Shown here: in pieces, positions 51,067 through 57,691 of the stretch
How positions within the stretch are numbered: position 1 is the stretch's first letter
Layout of the letters: the number at the start of each line of letters is the position of its first letter
Source of the DNA: Escherichia coli
Lineage (GTDB): Bacteria > Pseudomonadota > Gammaproteobacteria > Enterobacterales > Enterobacteriaceae
DNA length: 64,000 nucleotides
Assembly: GCF_003334255.1 (NCBI RefSeq)
Contig: NZ_QOWU01000009.1
Reading direction: 5' to 3' (one strand)
The notes under the pieces: generated by a model
What the model saw: only the letters and a program-made list of their open reading frames with translations
Database searches by the model: none
Told to the model about the DNA's origin: nothing
Made by a program: the position numbers and the translations under genes

Positions 51067-51798
51067 ATGAGCGAAATGATTTACGGCATCCACGCAGTGC
51101 AGGCCCTGCTGGAGCGCGCCCCTGAACGTTTTCAGGAAGTCTTTATTTTAAAAGGCCGTGAAGATAAACGTCTGTTACCGCTGATTCACGCCCTTGAGTC
51201 TCAGGGCGTGGTTATCCAGTTGGCAAACCGCCAATATCTCGACGAGAAAAGCGACGGTGCCGTGCATCAGGGCATTATCGCCCGCGTGAAGCCAGGACGT
51301 CAGTATCAGGAAAACGATCTGCCGGATCTGATCGCTTCGCTCGATCAACCGTTCCTGCTGATCCTCGACGGCGTAACCGATCCGCACAACCTCGGCGCGT
51401 GCCTGCGTAGTGCGGACGCCGCAGGCGTTCATGCGGTGATTGTGCCGAAAGATCGCTCCGCACAGCTCAACGCTACGGCGAAAAAAGTAGCCTGCGGCGC
51501 GGCAGAAAGCGTTCCGCTGATTCGGGTGACTAACCTTGCGCGCACCATGCGTATGTTGCAGGAAGAGAATATCTGGATCGTCGGTACGGCAGGCGAGGCG
51601 GATCATACACTCTATCAGAGCAAAATGACCGGACGCCTGGCGCTGGTGATGGGTGCGGAAGGTGAAGGTATGCGTCGCCTGACTCGTGAACATTGCGATG
51701 AGTTGATCAGCATCCCGATGGCTGGAAGCGTTTCTTCCCTGAACGTTTCGGTTGCGACCGGAATTTGCTTATTTGAAGCGGTGCGCCAGCGCAGCTAA
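51067..51798 (+). CDS. rlmB: 23S rRNA (Gm2251) 2'-O-methyltransferase (SpoU/TrmH family)
   Basis: 243-aa [33 protein letters not shown] with SPOUT motifs. Confidence 0.93.
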
Positions 51799-51818
51799 TT
51801 TCTCAGAATTATGAAAAG

Positions 51819-51844
51819 CCATCCAGATTTGGATGGTTTTTTTT
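51819..51844 (+). terminator. rlmB terminator
   Basis: CCATCC-AGATTT-GGATGG followed by TTTTTTTT. Confidence 0.85.
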
Positions 51845-51923
51845 GTCTATAGCTGGTAAGATAATTACGTATTGCAAATATTCATTTTATTAATATTTAA
51901 ACTTAATCTATATGGAATAATAT

Positions 51924-52325
51924 ATGACATGGAATCCGTTGGCGCTAGCGACGGCGCTGCAAACTGTACCTGAACAAAATATTGATGTAACAAATAGCGA
52001 GAACGCATTAATTATTAAAATGAATGATTATGGCGATTTGCAAATCAATATTCTTTTTACTTCCCGCCAAATGATTATCGAAACCTTTATTTGTCCGGTG
52101 AGTAGTATCAGCAATCCAGATGAATTTAATACCTTCTTATTAAGAAATCAGAAGATGATGCCGTTGTCATCGGTAGGGATCTCCAGCGTACAACAGGAAG
52201 AGTATTACATTGTTTTCGGGGCGTTATCGCTTAAATCTTCTCTTGAAGATATCCTGCTTGAGATAACCTCGCTGGTAGATAACGCATTGGATCTGGCTGA
52301 AATTACAGAAGAATATTCACACTAA
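51924..52325 (+). CDS. yjfI: Small acidic protein of unknown function (133 aa)
   Basis: 133-aa ORF, the first gene of the tightly spaced yjfI-C cluster. I recognise no catalytic motif. Confidence 0.8.
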   Translation: MTWNPLALATALQTVPEQNIDVTNSENALIIKMNDYGDLQINILFTSRQMIIETFICPVSSISNPDEFNTFLLRNQKMMPLSSVGISSVQQEEYYIVFGALSLKSSLEDILLEITSLVDNALDLAEITEEYSH

Positions 52326-52343
52326 TTACAAGGACGGGTATTT

Positions 52344-53042
52344 ATGGGAATTTTAAAAAGTTTATTTACGCTGGGGAAATCGTTTATCTCCCAGGCGGAA
52401 GAATCCATTGAAGAAACCCAGGGCGTGCGCATGCTGGAACAGCATATTCGTGACGCTAAAGCTGAACTCGATAAAGCCGGAAAATCTCGCGTTGATCTGC
52501 TGGCGCGGGTGAAATTAAGTCACGATAAGCTGAAAGATTTACGTGAGCGCAAAGCCAGTCTGGAAGCCCGTGCGCTGGAAGCGTTAAGCAAGAACGTTAA
52601 TCCGTCGTTGATTAACGAAGTTGCTGAAGAAATCGCGCGCCTTGAGAATCTCATTACCGCTGAAGAGCAAGTGTTGTCGAATCTGGAAGTCTCCCGTGAT
52701 GGCGTGGAAAAAGCAGTTACAGCGACAGCGCAGCGTATCGCTCAGTTTGAGCAGCAAATGGAAGTCGTTAAAGCCACTGAAGCCATGCAGCGTGCACAAC
52801 AGGCTGTAACAACCTCTACCGTTGGCGCATCTTCCAGCGTTTCGACAGCGGCAGAATCCTTAAAACGCCTGCAAACGCGTCAGGCCGAACGTCAGGCTCG
52901 CCTGGATGCTGCCGCACAGTTGGAGAAAGTCGCAGACGGTCGCGACCTTGACGAAAAGCTGGCGGAAGCCGGAATTGGCGGTAGCAATAAAAGTAGCGCC
53001 CAGGATGTATTAGCAAGACTGCAACGCCAACAGGGCGAGTAA
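52344..53042 (+). CDS. yjfJ: PspA/IM30 (ESCRT-III-like) family protein (232 aa)
   Basis: 232-aa ORF, almost entirely helical with heptad-like character (QAEESIEETQGVRMLEQHIRDAKAELDKAGKSRVDLLARVKL...). The family assignment is from recollection of YjfJ. Confidence 0.85.
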   Translation: MGILKSLFTLGKSFISQAEESIEETQGVRMLEQHIRDAKAELDKAGKSRVDLLARVKLSHDKLKDLRERKASLEARALEALSKNVNPSLINEVAEEIARLENLITAEEQVLSNLEVSRDGVEKAVTATAQRIAQFEQQMEVVKATEAMQRAQQAVTTSTVGASSSVSTAAESLKRLQTRQAERQARLDAAAQLEKVADGRDLDEKLAEAGIGGSNKSSAQDVLARLQRQQGE

Positions 53043-53047
53043 TTTTT

Positions 53048-53074
53048 TTGCCAGCCTCGCTAAAAGGCTGGCAA
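53048..53074 (+). terminator. Intercistronic stem-loop between yjfJ and yjfK (possible attenuator or processing site)
   Basis: TTGCCAGCC-TCGCTAAAA-GGCTGGCAA (9-bp stem) followed by CTATTTT, then the yjfK SD/ATG 19 nt later. Confidence 0.45.
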
Positions 53075-53092
53075 CTATTTTAAGGATAAAAT

Positions 53093-53752
53093 ATGTCTGG
53101 TTTTTTCCAGCGTCTGTTTGGCAAGGATAATAAGCCAGCTATCGCTCGTGGTCCGCTGGGACTTCATCTCAATAGTGGCTTTACGCTCGACACGTTAGCG
53201 TTTCGTTTGCTGGAAGATGAATTGCTGATTGCGCTGCCGGGTGAGGAATTTACGGTAGCCGCCGTCAGCCACATCGATCTGGGCGGCGGTAGTCAGATTT
53301 TCCGCTACTACACTTCAGGCGATGAGTTTCTGCAAATCAATACCACCGGCGGCGAAGATATTGATGACATTGATGATATCAAGCTCTTTGTCTATGAAGA
53401 GAGCTACGGTATCAGTAAAGAGAGTCACTGGCGCGAGGCGATCAACGCCAAAGCGATGGGAGCAATGACCTTAAACTGGCAGGAAAAACGCTGGCAGCGA
53501 TTTTTTAACAGCGAAGAACCGGGAAATATCGAACCCGTCTACATGCTGGAAAAAGTAGAAAATCAAAACCATGCCAAATGGGAGGTCCATAATTTTACCA
53601 TGGGCTACCAACGGCAAGTAACCGAAGATACTTACGAATATTTGCTGCTAAATGGTGAGGAATCTTTTAACGATCTCGGCGAGCCAGAGTGGTTATTTTC
53701 GCGCGCGTTGGGTGTCGATATCCCGCTGACATCACTTCATATTATTGGTTAA
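53093..53752 (+). CDS. yjfK: Acidic protein of unknown function (219 aa)
   Basis: 219-aa ORF with a DIDDIDDI acidic tract and no motif I can assign. Confidence 0.8.
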   Translation: MSGFFQRLFGKDNKPAIARGPLGLHLNSGFTLDTLAFRLLEDELLIALPGEEFTVAAVSHIDLGGGSQIFRYYTSGDEFLQINTTGGEDIDDIDDIKLFVYEESYGISKESHWREAINAKAMGAMTLNWQEKRWQRFFNSEEPGNIEPVYMLEKVENQNHAKWEVHNFTMGYQRQVTEDTYEYLLLNGEESFNDLGEPEWLFSRALGVDIPLTSLHIIG

Positions 53753-53769
53753 TTACAAGGACGTTTACA

Positions 53770-54168
53770 ATGCATATACTGGATTCACTTCTTGCCTTTA
53801 GCGCCTATTTTTTTATTGGCGTGGCTATGGTGATTATTTTTCTGTTTATCTATTCTAAAATTACACCGCACAACGAATGGCAGTTAATCAAAAACAATAA
53901 TACCGCGGCGTCACTGGCGTTCAGCGGTACATTGTTGGGTTACGTTATCCCCTTATCCAGTGCGGCAATCAATGCGGTGAGTATTCCAGACTATTTCGCC
54001 TGGGGCGGGATTGCACTGGTGATTCAGTTACTCGTTTTTGCTGGTGTCAGACTTTATATGCCCGCATTAAGCGAAAAAATTATTAATCACAATACCGCAG
54101 CAGGAATGTTTATGGGAACCGCCGCGCTGGCTGGCGGTATTTTTAACGCAGCTTGTATGACATGGTAA
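53770..54168 (+). CDS. yjfL: Small inner-membrane protein with four hydrophobic segments (132 aa)
   Basis: The ORF-track entry is 159 aa. The ATG at 53770 gives MHILDSLLAFSAYFFIGVAMVIIFLFIY. Confidence 0.8.
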   Translation: MHILDSLLAFSAYFFIGVAMVIIFLFIYSKITPHNEWQLIKNNNTAASLAFSGTLLGYVIPLSSAAINAVSIPDYFAWGGIALVIQLLVFAGVRLYMPALSEKIINHNTAAGMFMGTAALAGGIFNAACMTW

Positions 54169-54177
54169 TGGACGATC

Positions 54178-54816
54178 ATGGCCAGAAAACGCAAATCAAG
54201 AAATAACAGTAAAATTGGTCACGGAGCGATTAGTCGCATTGGTAGACCGAATAATCCTTTTGAACCGCGTCGCAATCGCTACGCACAAAAATACTTAACG
54301 TTGGCGCTAATGGGCGGTGCCGCTTTTTTCGTATTGAAAGGTTGTAGCGATAGTAGCGATGTCGATAACGACGGCGACGGAACGTTTTACGCGACAGTGC
54401 AGGATTGTATTGATGACGGTAATAATGCCGACATTTGCGCGCGTGGCTGGAACAACGCCAAAACGGCATTTTATGCCGATGTTCCGAAGAATATGACTCA
54501 GCAGAACTGTCAGTCTAAGTACGAAAATTGCTACTACGACAATGTTGAACAGAGTTGGATCCCGGTCGTTTCTGGATTTTTGTTAAGCCGGGTTATTCGT
54601 AAAGATCGCGATGAGCCGTTTGTTTATAACAGCGGCGGTTCCTCTTTTGCTTCGCGCCCAGTCTGGCGCAGCACTTCTGGTGATTACTCTTGGCGCTCCG
54701 GTTCTGGCAAAAAAGAGTCTTACTCTTCGGGCGGCTTTACCACCAAAAAAGCGTCTACCGTTTCTCGCGGCGGCTATGGTCGTTCTTCCAGCGCCCGTGG
54801 GCATTGGGGAGGCTAA
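54178..54816 (+). CDS. yjfM: Membrane-anchored or lipoprotein-like protein of unknown function (212 aa)
   Basis: 212-aa ORF with a basic N-terminus (MARKRKSRNNSK), one hydrophobic segment ending LKGC, a Cys-containing middle region and a G/S/R/Y-rich C-terminal tail. Confidence 0.8.
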   Translation: MARKRKSRNNSKIGHGAISRIGRPNNPFEPRRNRYAQKYLTLALMGGAAFFVLKGCSDSSDVDNDGDGTFYATVQDCIDDGNNADICARGWNNAKTAFYADVPKNMTQQNCQSKYENCYYDNVEQSWIPVVSGFLLSRVIRKDRDEPFVYNSGGSSFASRPVWRSTSGDYSWRSGSGKKESYSSGGFTTKKASTVSRGGYGRSSSARGHWGG

Positions 54817-54818
54817 TC

Positions 54819-55982
54819 ATGCTGAGACACAACGTTCCTGTGCGACGGGATCTGGACCAGATCGCCGCTGACAACGGTTTCGACTTTCATATCATCGACA
54901 ATGAAATCTATTGGGATGAGAGTCGGGCTTACCGTTTTACTCTGCGCCAGATTGAAGAGCAGATCGAAAAACCGACTGCGGAACTGCATCAGATGTGCCT
55001 TGAGGTGGTGGATCGCGCGGTAAAAGATGAAGAGATCCTGACGCAACTGGCGATCCCGCCGTTGTACTGGGATGTGATCGCTGAAAGCTGGCGCGCCCGC
55101 GATCCTTCGCTGTATGGACGGATGGATTTTGCCTGGTGTGGCAATGCGCCGGTGAAGCTGCTGGAGTACAACGCCGATACGCCAACTTCATTGTACGAGT
55201 CGGCTTATTTCCAGTGGCTGTGGCTGGAGGATGCCCGGCGCAGCGGCATTATTCCGCGTGATGCCGATCAGTACAATGCTATTCAGGAACGCCTGATTTC
55301 ACGCTTTAGCGAGCTTTACAGTCGGGAACCGTTTTATTTTTGCTGCTGTCAGGACACCGATGAAGACAGGAGTACCGTGCTGTACTTGCAGGACTGCGCC
55401 CAGCAGGCAGGGCAGGAGTCGCGGTTTATCTACATTGAAGATCTCGGTTTGGGCGTCGGCGGCGTACTGACCGATCTTGATGATAATGTCATCCAGCGTG
55501 CATTTAAGCTGTATCCGCTGGAGTGGATGATGCGTGACGATAACGGTCCGCTGCTGCGCAAGCGTCGCGAGCAATGGGTGGAGCCGTTATGGAAAAGTAT
55601 CTTGAGTAATAAAGGGCTAATGCCGCTGCTTTGGCGCTTCTTCCCTGGTCATCCTAACCTTCTTGCATCCTGGTTTGAGGGTGAAAAATCGCAGATTGCC
55701 GCTGGCGAAAGCTATGTGCGTAAACCGCTCTACTCGCGCGAAGGCGGAAATGTCACCATTTTCGACGGCCAGAATAACGTCGTTGACCACGCTGATGGTG
55801 ATTACGCCGATGAACCGATGATCTACCAGGCGTTTCAACCTCTGCCGCGGTTTGGCGATAGCTACACACTCATCGGTAGCTGGATTGTCGATGATGAAGC
55901 GTGCGGAATGGGGATCCGTGAAGATAACACACTGATCACCAAAGACACCTCACGTTTCGTTCCGCATTACATTGCTGGATAA
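54819..55982 (+). CDS. yjfC: Glutathionylspermidine-synthase-like ATP-grasp protein (387 aa)
   Basis: The ORF-track entry is 430 aa. The ATG at 54819, 2 nt after the yjfM stop, gives MLRHNVPVRRDLDQIAADNGFDFHIIDNEIYWDE. The family call is from recollection of YjfC. Confidence 0.85.
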   Translation: MLRHNVPVRRDLDQIAADNGFDFHIIDNEIYWDESRAYRFTLRQIEEQIEKPTAELHQMCLEVVDRAVKDEEILTQLAIPPLYWDVIAESWRARDPSLYGRMDFAWCGNAPVKLLEYNADTPTSLYESAYFQWLWLEDARRSGIIPRDADQYNAIQERLISRFSELYSREPFYFCCCQDTDEDRSTVLYLQDCAQQAGQESRFIYIEDLGLGVGGVLTDLDDNVIQRAFKLYPLEWMMRDDNGPLLRKRREQWVEPLWKSILSNKGLMPLLWRFFPGHPNLLASWFEGEKSQIAAGESYVRKPLYSREGGNVTIFDGQNNVVDHADGDYADEPMIYQAFQPLPRFGDSYTLIGSWIVDDEACGMGIREDNTLITKDTSRFVPHYIAG

Positions 55983-56065
55983 GAATGTTTTAGCAATCTC
56001 TTTCTGTCATGAATCCATGGCAGTGACCATACTAATGGTGACTGCCATTGATGGAGGGAGACACA

Positions 56066-57691
56066 GTGCACTGGCAAACTCACACCGTTTTTAATCAACC
56101 TATACCATTAAATAACAGCAACTTATACCTGTCTGATGGCGCGCTCTGCGAAGCGGTAACGCGTGAAGGTGCTGGCTGGGATAGCGATTTTCTAGCCAGT
56201 ATTGGTCAGCAGTTAGGAACGGCTGAATCCCTTGAACTGGGGCGGCTGGCGAATGTGAATCCGCCTGAATTATTGCGCTACGATGCGCAAGGACGCCGTC
56301 TGGACGATGTGCGTTTTCACCCCGCCTGGCACCTGCTGATGCAGGCGCTATGTACCAATCGGGTGCACAATCTTGCCTGGGAAGAAGACGCTCGCTCCGG
56401 CGCATTTGTGGCGCGCGCGGCGCGTTTTATGTTACATGCGCAGGTTGAGGCAGGGTCGTTATGTCCGATAACCATGACCTTTGCCGCCACGCCATTGTTG
56501 TTACAGATGTTACCCGCGCCGTTTCAGGACTGGACCACGCCGCTATTGAGCGATCGCTACGATTCTCACTTATTGCCAGGTGGGCAAAAACGCGGTTTGT
56601 TGATTGGCATGGGAATGACGGAAAAGCAGGGCGGTTCCGATGTTATGAGCAACACCACCCGTGCAGAGCGTCTGGAAGATGGCTCTTATCGGCTGGTGGG
56701 GCATAAATGGTTTTTCTCGGTTCCGCAAAGCGATGCGCATCTGGTGCTGGCGCAGACCGCGGGTGGTCTGTCCTGCTTTTTTGTGCCGCGCTTTTTGCCT
56801 GACGGGCAACGCAACGCGATTCGCCTCGAGCGGCTGAAAGATAAGCTGGGTAATCGCTCTAACGCCAGTTGCGAAGTGGAGTTTCAGGATGCCATTGGTT
56901 GGTTGTTGGGGCAGGAAGGGGAAGGAATTCGTCTGATCCTGAAAATGGGTGGGATGACGCGTTTTGATTGCGCCCTGGGTAGCCATGCCATGATGCGCCG
57001 TGCATTTTCGCTGGCGATTTATCATGCACATCAACGCCATGTTTTTGGTAATCCATTGATCCAACAGCCCCTTATGCGTCATGTCTTAAGTCGCATGGCA
57101 CTTCAGCTTGAAGGGCAAACGGCGTTGCTGTTTCGTCTTGCGCGAGCGTGGGACCGGCGTGCCGATGCCAAAGAAGCCCTGTGGGCGCGTTTATTTACGC
57201 CTGCGGCAAAATTTGTGATCTGCAAAAGAGGTATGCCGTTTGTGGCCGAAGCGATGGAGGTGCTGGGCGGCATTGGTTATTGCGAGGAGAGCGAGCTGCC
57301 GCGGCTTTACCGGGAGATGCCGGTAAACAGTATTTGGGAAGGTTCCGGCAATATTATGTGCCTGGATGTGTTGCGCGTTCTCAATAAGCAAGCGGGCGTA
57401 TACGACTTATTGTCGGAAGCATTTGTGGAAGTGAAAGGGCAGGATCGCTATTTTGATCGCGCGGTTCGTCGTTTACAGCAGCAGCTGCGTAAGCCAGCTG
57501 AAGAACTGGGGCGAGAGATTACTCATCAGCTATTCCTGCTGGGCTGCGGTGCGCAAATGTTGAAATATGCTTCTCCGCCAATGGCGCAGGCGTGGTGTCA
57601 GGTGATGTTAGATACGCGCGGCGGCGTACGGTTGTCAGAGCAGATCCAGAATGATTTATTGCTGCGGGCGACGGGGGGAGTGTGTGTGTAA
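56066..57691 (+). CDS. aidB: Adaptive-response acyl-CoA-dehydrogenase-like protein AidB (541 aa, GTG start)
   Basis: The ORF-track entry is 547 aa. The GTG at 56066 gives (M)HWQTHTVFNQPIPLNNSNLYLSDGAL. It has an ACAD fold. Confidence 0.92.
   Translation: MHWQTHTVFNQPIPLNNSNLYLSDGALCEAVTREGAGWDSDFLASIGQQLGTAESLELGRLANVNPPELLRYDAQGRRLDDVRFHPAWHLLMQALCTNRVHNLAWEEDARSGAFVARAARFMLHAQVEAGSLCPITMTFAATPLLLQMLPAPFQDWTTPLLSDRYDSHLLPGGQKRGLLIGMGMTEKQGGSDVMSNTTRAERLEDGSYRLVGHKWFFSVPQSDAHLVLAQTAGGLSCFFVPRFLPDGQRNAIRLERLKDKLGNRSNASCEVEFQDAIGWLLGQEGEGIRLILKMGGMTRFDCALGSHAMMRRAFSLAIYHAHQRHVFGNPLIQQPLMRHVLSRMALQLEGQTALLFRLARAWDRRADAKEALWARLFTPAAKFVICKRGMPFVAEAMEVLGGIGYCEESELPRLYREMPVNSIWEGSGNIMCLDVLRVLNKQAGVYDLLSEAFVEVKGQDRYFDRAVRRLQQQLRKPAEELGREITHQLFLLGCGAQMLKYASPPMAQAWCQVMLDTRGGVRLSEQIQNDLLLRATGGVCV

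Follow-up and report, generated by a model that had tools for sequence, protein, structure and literature searches.

Within a 64,000-nt stretch of Escherichia coli DNA (NCBI RefSeq assembly GCF_003334255.1, contig NZ_QOWU01000009.1; hereafter the window), the six-gene cluster yjfI-yjfJ-yjfK-yjfL-yjfM-yjfC encodes a PspA-type membrane module next to a gene pair, yjfM-yjfC, whose products are a DUF1190 protein and an ATP-grasp ligase related to glutathionylspermidine synthetase (Gss). Our best overall explanation, to which we give a probability of about 40%, is a nested operon built around this DUF1190-ligase pair, in which YjfC would amidate the C-terminal end of YjfM and the PspA module would be linked to that reaction. 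The parts of this explanation differ in strength. There is hardly any doubt that the region is E. coli yjfIJKLMC, a modular copy of a conserved proteobacterial operon type; both the cluster and the domains it encodes have been described before and are not a discovery of this work. We hold it quite likely that the DUF1190 protein and the ligase act in one pathway, put the odds of functional coupling between the PspA module and the ligase module at about even, and offer the YjfM C-terminus as the YjfC acceptor only tentatively, by analogy. An earlier note, drawn up from the sequence alone, had described the cluster as a membrane-stress or membrane-remodelling module coupled to an amide ligase, with no demonstrated role in E. 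coli. The first proposal is compatible with the genomic context and has also been made in published comparative genomics, and is therefore not new; the second is outdated, because crystal structures and a ligase name for YjfC, structures of its paralogue YgiC, a cited in vitro activity of both, tolC and heat phenotypes, a described operon class and the Pseudomonas bacABCDEF system are all on record.

DUF1190 and the ligase form the core of a nested operon

One genome per species was searched with an alignment of YjfC relatives, and the genes in the best 80 ligase loci were annotated with family hidden Markov models built from the window proteins and first-round matches. These loci are the closest relatives, almost all of them from Gamma- and Alphaproteobacteria, and all but one carry proteobacterial names. 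A DUF1190 gene was located upstream of the ligase gene on the same strand in 76 of the 80 loci, mostly with only 0–9 nt between its stop codon and the ligase start. Same-strand DUF350 genes preceded the ligase in 37 loci, DUF2491 and PspA genes in 25 each, DUF2170 genes in 24 and a K+ channel gene (Ion_trans_2 plus TrkA_N) in 18. With the last letters of the yjf gene names standing for their homologues, the architectures were M-C only (39/80), I-J-channel-K-L-M-C (13/80), I-J-K-L-M-C (10/80), L-M-C (7/80), channel-L-M-C (5/80) and orphan ligase (3/80). The gene upstream of most M-C-only pairs, whose identity was not profile-checked, we take to be tolC.

Where the dyad of PspA and its chaperone-like partner occurred near the ligase, it followed the order and strand of K-L-M-C in 23 of 25 loci, from both Gamma- and Alphaproteobacteria, and the order DUF2170-PspA-DUF2491-DUF350-DUF1190-ligase recurred in 23 loci of other genera. 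The system is nested, with DUF1190 and the ligase as the core, DUF350 added in about half of the contexts, and the PspA/chaperone/DUF2491 set, often with a K+ channel, in about a third. The earlier note had considered that synteny might not extend beyond Enterobacteriaceae; the co-linear loci in Gamma- and Alphaproteobacteria do not bear this out.

In Salmonella enterica (locus L081, 3958–5028), a K+ channel gene with the selectivity filter GFGD and an RCK-type domain is located between yjfJ and yjfK; in the sampled genome it is split in two frames and not called as a gene. A tblastn search of the window for this channel gave nothing (E above 3), and only the 50-nt, hairpin-bearing gap between yjfJ and yjfK is present at that place. 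Comparison of these sequences indicates that a K+ channel gene has been lost from E. coli where the yjfJ-yjfK hairpin now stands. In a Brevundimonas metagenome-assembled genome (L079, 6512–11164), K-L-M and I-J-ligase form two divergent groups on opposite strands, and Gly-Gly is retained at the end of the DUF1190 protein.

DUF1190 proteins end in Gly-Gly

YjfM matched PF06693 (DUF1190; 2.9e-17), and the match reached the last profile position. The protein (isoelectric point (pI) 9.6, 5 Cys) comprises a basic N-terminus, a signal-like segment with an LKGC motif, a Cys-containing domain and a disordered S/G/R tail, much as the earlier note had described it. DUF1190 tails encoded beside the ligase carry an RGGFG motif, an S/R-rich stretch and, at the extreme C-terminus, [W/F/M]-G-G. 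We also sampled DUF1190 proteins independently of the ligase loci, using 121 representatives of 50%-identity clusters, each at least 150 aa long. Among these, 95 ended in GG and 14 in GS, the residue at −3 was W in 66 and F in 15, and the exceptions were mostly E. coli-like frameshifted fragments. A loose lipobox pattern was present in 107 of the 121, and most loci had typical MKR...L(A/S)(G/A)C signals. No invariant Gly C-terminus was found in the other operon proteins; YjfK ended in G in only 11 of 26 homologues.

The yjfM gene of E. coli ends TGG GGA GGC TAA TC ATG, which places GGAGG 7 nt before the yjfC start, and the Gly-Gly end might be kept only as a GGN GGN Shine–Dalgarno sequence for the coupled ligase gene. 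Analysis of DNA encoding the tails contradicts this. The penultimate Gly codon was GGC in 27, GGT in 19, GGA in 12 and GGG in 8 tails, and the last was GGC in 40, GGT in 18, GGA in 7 and GGG in 1; GGAG or GAGG occurred in only 12 of 66 tails, and Gly-Gly was retained at DUF1190-ligase gaps of 37–60 nt and in the Brevundimonas locus, where no ligase gene follows. Because all four Gly codons are used, Shine–Dalgarno motifs are few and the residues persist at long gaps, the Gly-Gly end is conserved at the amino-acid and not the codon level. On codon use, motif scarcity and independence of gap length we reject the Shine–Dalgarno explanation as extremely improbable; moreover, W, F and M, the hydrophobic residues at −3, are encoded by unrelated codons.

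The yjfC frame is open for 43 codons upstream of its start, across the yjfM tail (54690–54818). Database entries of 548–601 aa are yjfM-yjfC fusions (one cluster holds 130 member sequences) that arise by frameshift after ...GGFTTKK; they would lose the RGGYG...WGG tail, and are either real alleles or homopolymer sequencing errors. Residue 31 of YjfM (54268–54270), in the basic N-terminal extension, is Cys in K-12 and Arg in this strain.

YjfC resembles Gss in its predicted catalytic residues

YjfC matched PF03738 (GSP_synth) with 497.5 bits (3.3e-149). Its crystal structures are PDB 7UK6 and 7UK7 (7UK6 chain A, E 4e-273), and those of YgiC, which matches YjfC over the full length (433.5 bits, E 6e-129), are 7UK8 and 7UKA. 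RefSeq lists the K-12 product as peptide--spermidine ligase YjfC, and the protein encoded in the window differs from that of K-12 at four residues (D287E, P291S, I304L and K318Q). YjfC (387 aa) aligns with Gss (619 aa) only from about residue 250 on and is without the N-terminal amidase domain.

In the profile alignment, YjfC R101, D103, E116 and N118, which are invariant in 12 relatives, stand opposite Gss R316, D318, E330 and N332, which we take to be Mg/ATP-binding residues, and T121, T123 and S124 stand opposite Gss S335, S337 and C338. By this alignment YjfC keeps the Gss catalytic residues and not the glutathione pocket. The assignment of YjfC to the Gss-type ATP-grasp ligases in the earlier note is thereby supported, and its reservation that the nucleotide-binding residues might be missing falls away. 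The replaced pocket residues fit the citing literature, in which YjfC and YgiC are credited with peptide-spermidine ligase activity in vitro (Pederick 2023, as given in citing papers), whereas glutathionylspermidine synthetase activity is reported there to be absent.

The upstream genes encode a PspA-type module

Pfam assigned a single full-length family to each of the six proteins, far over the curated cut-off in every case (DUF2170, PspA_IM30, DUF2491, DUF350, DUF1190 and GSP_synth), and these and profile searches agree with the earlier calls of a PspA/IM30 protein, a membrane protein, a lipobox-like protein and a Gss-type ligase. YjfJ matched PF04012 with 196.7 bits (cut-off 33.9), its residues 2–232 aligning to profile positions 1–220. 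A profile of 12 YjfJ-type sequences matched solved Vipp1/PspA chains over positions 1–225 (E 1e-10 to 4e-10); the single YjfJ sequence gave no PspA match among solved structures at E 0.01. By these comparisons, YjfJ is classed as a divergent PspA/IM30 (bacterial ESCRT-III-like) protein.

YjfI, small and acidic (pI 4.05) as had been noted, matched PF09938 (DUF2170; 151.6 bits, 1.5e-44). Residues 3–128 matched the P. aeruginosa BacA crystal structure PDB 8Q8O (E 1.1e-16), and a match to the NCBIfam BacA model (1e-26) was under the cut-off. The BacA fold has been likened to type III secretion (CesT/Tir-like) chaperones (PMC11237479 among other sources). YjfI is thus a BacA homologue by sequence, with a chaperone-like fold predicted from the published description of BacA.

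YjfK (DUF2491) is acidic (pI 4.56) and carries the previously noticed DIDDIDDI tract; its sequence contains no signal peptide or hydrophobic segment. The predicted model is all-beta and confident (predicted local distance difference test 90.1), and a search for solved structural relatives found none. Polar residues R71, Y73, Q81, E153, R174, E182 and E189 are conserved across 26 diverse homologues, a set compatible with a ligand-binding or enzymatic role. YjfL matched PF03994 (DUF350; 1.3e-33) and is strongly hydrophobic (grand average of hydropathy 0.95), with four hydrophobic segments when read by eye, consistent with the membrane protein described before. YjfL-type proteins have a conserved C-terminus, N-A-A-C/S-M/I-T/S-[Y/W] (54148–54165), with Y as the last residue in 28 of 39 and W in 5 of 39.

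Relation to known systems

Ravi et al. (2024, mSystems; PMC11237479) describe an operon class in which a dyad of CesT/Tir-like and PspA proteins is associated with polyamine-metabolism genes, and propose that the class links polyamine status to membrane dynamics. Common to that class and the E. coli cluster are DUF2170 (typified by YjfI), a yjfJ-type PspA, a Gss-related ATP-grasp protein, a four-transmembrane DUF350 protein, a DUF1190 lipoprotein and DUF2491. The class also lists a K+ channel with an intracellular ligand-sensing domain, whereas the E. coli copy is without a channel, and among related operon variants are some with genes for AdoMet decarboxylase, a polyamine oxidase or spermidine-synthase-like proteins. 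The DUF1190 C-terminus and the nesting of modules, which are added here, are not mentioned in the passages of that paper that were consulted.

In Pseudomonas aeruginosa, the corresponding operon is bacABCDEF, in which BacA is the YjfI homologue and BacB is PspA-type; two sampled Pseudomonas loci (L061 and L072) show the I-J-K-L-M-C families and order. Reverse transcription PCR linked all six bac genes in one transcript, the other five proteins were increased 6- to 13-fold in a bacA mutant, and bac mutants were impaired in biofilm formation, rhamnolipid secretion and virulence, phenotypes without a known E. coli counterpart. An AlphaFold2 screen predicted an interaction between BacA and BacB (0.981). 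A sigma-54 promoter has been proposed in Pseudomonas, whereas no sigma-54-like TGG-N9-TGC motif was found upstream of E. coli yjfI (51701–51930). The DUF1190 tails in the sampled Pseudomonas loci end in SSS, in contrast to the GG of E. coli YjfM.

E. coli itself encodes a paralogous DUF1190-ligase pair, ygiB-ygiC, located behind tolC, with the order and tight spacing of yjfM-yjfC. YgiB-type tails end in [M/F/L]-G-G, the −3 residue being usually Met rather than the Trp of the yjf version, and the pair has no DUF350, DUF2491 or PspA/chaperone partners. Loss of ygiBC together with yjfMC is reported to aggravate the tolC growth defect, which points to functional redundancy of the two pairs.

The PF03738 ATP-grasp domain is common to YjfC, Gss and trypanothione synthetase, and both chemistries amidate a carboxylate with spermidine; Gss has in addition an amidase domain, a glutathione pocket and glutathionylspermidine synthetase activity (EC 6.3.1.8), which YjfC is without (the pocket by alignment, the activity as stated in citing papers). 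The classical pspF-pspABCDE system likewise includes a PspA/IM30 member with a presumed membrane-protective role. The yjf cluster differs from it in having neither PspB, PspC, PspD, PspE or PspF homologues by Pfam nor a sigma-54 motif, and YjfJ is divergent and reported not to form rings.

A proposed modification of the YjfM C-terminus

Gss activates the glycine carboxylate of glutathione and then amidates it with spermidine. By analogy, the Gly at the end of YjfM is a candidate acceptor. In the mechanism we propose, YjfC would activate the C-terminal Gly of YjfM ([W/F/M]-G-G) and amidate it with spermidine or a related polyamine, and YgiC would do likewise with YgiB. The reaction would take place on the YjfM precursor, probably before or during export and aided by translational coupling of yjfM and yjfC, and would give an envelope lipoprotein a polycationic tail. 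Under the same stress the inner membrane would be protected by YjfJ, which YjfI would hold or regulate in the way predicted for BacA and BacB, and polyamine status would thereby be tied to envelope maintenance. In its most specific form, the proposal states that YjfC/YgiC ligases amidate the invariant C-terminal Gly of the adjacent DUF1190 lipoprotein with spermidine, which would amount to a ribosomal-protein C-terminal polyamination of a kind not yet described in bacteria, and that the yjf version is wired to a PspA repair module; we regard this full form as rather unlikely.

Partial parallels exist for the chemistry. RimK modifies the C-terminus of ribosomal protein S6 in an ATP-dependent reaction that adds glutamates to a cytoplasmic target; as proposed for YjfM, a protein C-terminus is activated in an ATP-dependent step, but the addition is glutamate and not spermidine. 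The Gly-Gly ends of ubiquitin and SUMO are conjugated to spermidine in vitro, like the proposed YjfM end, but through E1/E2 thioesters and not an ATP-grasp acyl-phosphate. The adjacency of DUF1190 and ligase genes and the amino-acid-level conservation of Gly-Gly make the question of the cellular target testable. If correct, the mechanism would define a protein modification new to the Gram-negative envelope and offer a way into the tolC-linked, heat-tolerance and Pseudomonas biofilm phenotypes that have been reported.

Several points weigh against this mechanism. Most DUF1190 proteins have a lipoprotein signal, so that the tail is expected in the periplasm, and the YjfC sequence contains no signal or hydrophobic segment; with a periplasmic mature tail and a cytoplasmic ligase, the modification would have to precede export. 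The lipobox-like L-K-G-C of E. coli YjfM is atypical and follows a 38-residue basic extension, and in the locus set some DUF1190 tails, including those from Pseudomonas, end in SSS. A 2025 review gives the physiological substrate of the YgiC/YjfC ligases as unknown, and our literature search, which covered the primary biochemical paper only through papers that cite it, returned none in which YjfM or YgiB is given as the ligase substrate. A review also reports that YjfJ does not form the rings or complexes typical of PspA. As for coupling to the PspA module, the ygiBC pair functions with no PspA protein beside it, so that coupling is not obligatory; Citrobacter sp. NCU1 (L001, 8565–11167) has rnr-rlmB followed directly by yjfL-yjfM-yjfC-aidB, without yjfIJK; and the co-regulated set in E. 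coli is yjfIJKL, without yjfMC. The 23 co-linear loci and the co-expression in Pseudomonas support coupling of the two modules, and the separate occurrence of the modules and an RNA-seq module limited to yjfIJKL indicate that it is loose.

The alternative that survives best, and which we rate as possible but doubtful, is that YjfC makes a soluble short peptide-polyamine conjugate, like glutathionylspermidine, that buffers, stores or signals polyamine or peptide pools, with YjfM and YjfL acting downstream in binding, export or sensing, not as substrates, and the operon tuning the membrane state to polyamine concentration, as Ravi et al. propose. The in vitro activity, as cited, is on peptides, the closest characterized relatives, Gss and trypanothione synthetase, use a tripeptide as substrate, and a cytoplasmic ligase fits a soluble substrate; the polyamine-metabolism genes in related operon variants (PMC11237479) and the position of ygiBC behind the efflux channel gene tolC point the same way. 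However, a soluble product leaves unexplained why the extreme C-terminus is the most conserved part of the DUF1190 tail and why DUF1190 and the ligase are near-constantly adjacent, often with a gap of a few bases, and no such metabolite is reported in the literature examined.

An unlikely alternative is that two unrelated units stand side by side without a joint mechanism: a yjfIJ unit for a PspA protector with its chaperone, which would owe part of its expression to read-through from rnr-rlmB and would stop at the hairpin behind yjfJ, and a yjf(K)LMC ligase unit. The hairpin is indeed followed by a partial T-run, one paper speaks of a yjfIJ operon, yjfLMC occurs without yjfIJK in 12 of the 80 loci (including the Citrobacter locus with its rnr-rlmB and aidB flanks) and the M-C pair stands alone in 39. 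Against a chance juxtaposition, 23 of the 25 loci with the dyad near the ligase, from Gamma- and Alphaproteobacteria, have it co-linear with K-L-M-C on one strand, the six Pseudomonas genes are reported to be co-transcribed and their proteins to rise together in the bacA mutant, and the RNA-seq module spans the hairpin, as it includes yjfK and yjfL. The hairpin is located, moreover, where relatives have the K+ channel gene, and may be a by-product of channel loss and not a designed boundary.

Finally, the suggestion from a heat-evolution study that YjfJ, YjfK and YjfL make pores or contribute bulk protein to the membrane, stiffening the envelope or exporting misfolded proteins at high temperature, is in keeping with the heat response of yjfIJKL and with YjfL being a membrane protein but very improbable, as YjfK lacks both a signal peptide and a hydrophobic segment and could not be placed in the membrane by the authors themselves, PspA/IM30 proteins are peripheral membrane-remodelling proteins and not channels, and the ligase pair would be left unexplained.

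Layout and boundaries of the cluster

All six genes are on the same strand, with intergenic gaps of 18, 50, 17, 9 and 2 nt from yjfI to yjfC, and the coordinates agree with those given before (Table 1). The yjfIJKLMC region was matched in all 5426 complete E. coli genomes, at a coverage of at least 80% in 5327, and the cluster in the window differs from that of K-12 at 19 of 4269 aligned positions. In one complete E. coli genome (NZ_CP182159.1), an IS1 transposase is annotated within the cluster.

Upstream, the cluster is separated from rlmB by an intrinsic terminator whose hairpin was equalled by none of 200 shuffled sequences and whose T8 tract is located 80 nt before the yjfI ATG; the strong terminator and AT-rich spacer of the earlier description are both borne out by folding and composition. 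No consensus sigma-70 site was found in the spacer, and a promoter scan gave sites no more numerous than in shuffled sequences and none upstream of yjfI.

The earlier note had treated the six genes as one compact unit. They are co-linear; on the other side are a hairpin after yjfJ that the note did not contain, the RNA-seq set of yjfIJKL only and the separate occurrence of yjfIJK and yjfLMC. The hairpin in the yjfJ-yjfK gap (ΔG −17.1 kcal/mol, z −3.0) is possibly a partial terminator or attenuator. A terminator-like site inside yjfL (54118–54138) was rejected as no better than shuffled sequences (z −0.46).

Downstream of yjfC, the 13-bp inverted repeat that had been taken as a boundary is real, being composed of 8+5 pairs, and is not a typical terminator. 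It is part of a stem (ΔG −32.9 kcal/mol, z −5.1) without a T-run that pairs with the aidB Shine–Dalgarno sequence; in a 78-nt structure around the repeat, CUCUUUCUGUCA and the GGAGGGAG region immediately before the aidB start form the outer stem. Lacking a T-run and pairing with the ribosome-binding region of aidB, the stem looks more like an aidB leader than a part of the yjfIJKLMC cluster, which suggests translational or transcriptional control of aidB and not termination of yjfC.

Table 1. Positions of genes and sequence elements in the window
Feature	Position	Strand	Description
rlmB intrinsic terminator	hairpin 51819-51836, T8 tract 51837-51844	+	ΔG −16.4 kcal/mol, z −3.8
Spacer upstream of yjfI	51845-51923	+	79 nt, 80% A+T
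yjfI	51924-52325	+	133-aa open reading frame
yjfJ	52344-53042	+	232-aa open reading frame
Hairpin in the 50-nt yjfJ-yjfK gap	53048-53074	+	perfect 10 bp, 7-nt loop, then CTATTTT
yjfK	53093-53752	+	219-aa open reading frame
yjfL	53770-54168	+	132 aa; start is an ATG within a longer GTG open reading frame
yjfM	54178-54816	+	212-aa open reading frame
Codons of the conserved YjfM tail, R197-G201 (RGGYG) to W210-G211-G212	54766-54813	+	proposed ligase acceptor
yjfC	54819-55982	+	387 aa; start is an ATG within a 430-aa TTG open reading frame
Inverted repeat downstream of yjfC	56017-56048	+	8+5 pairs; core of the stem 55998-56060

Expression and the T tract of the rlmB terminator

In heat-evolved E. 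coli, yjfIJKL is a co-regulated RNA-seq module that is strongly upregulated, and at 42 °C its activation from a plasmid increased the growth rate by a factor of 1.21. The upregulation in heat-evolved K-12 is accompanied by, and credited to, a (T)9→8 mutation in the intergenic region between rlmB and yjfI (+47/−80), which may act on terminator read-through or on a promoter. This site is the U-tract of the rlmB terminator (51837–51844), where the window has T8, the evolved allele, and K-12 has T9. With 72- and 73-nt queries, the exact T8 context was present in 53 complete E. coli genomes and the exact T9 context in 1412, counts in which genomes that differ elsewhere in the query are not included and homopolymer assembly errors are possible. 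Given its T8 tract, this strain may express yjfIJKL more strongly, unless the tract itself is a homopolymer assembly error.

Other elements and neighbouring genes

No Rfam family was found in 51700–56200, and the PADLOC anti-phage defence models gave no match except weak coiled-coil matches for YjfJ. Loci of the Alteromonadales type (L008, 5662–5961, and similar) have a small DUF6471 gene ahead of the yjfI homologue in divergent orientation, and in six loci the ligase gene has a rhomboid protease gene behind it. In Pseudoalteromonas, yjfL is preceded by a gene for a PilZ-domain protein. Further coordinates for these neighbouring genes are L011 11234–11803 and L025 8249–8623.

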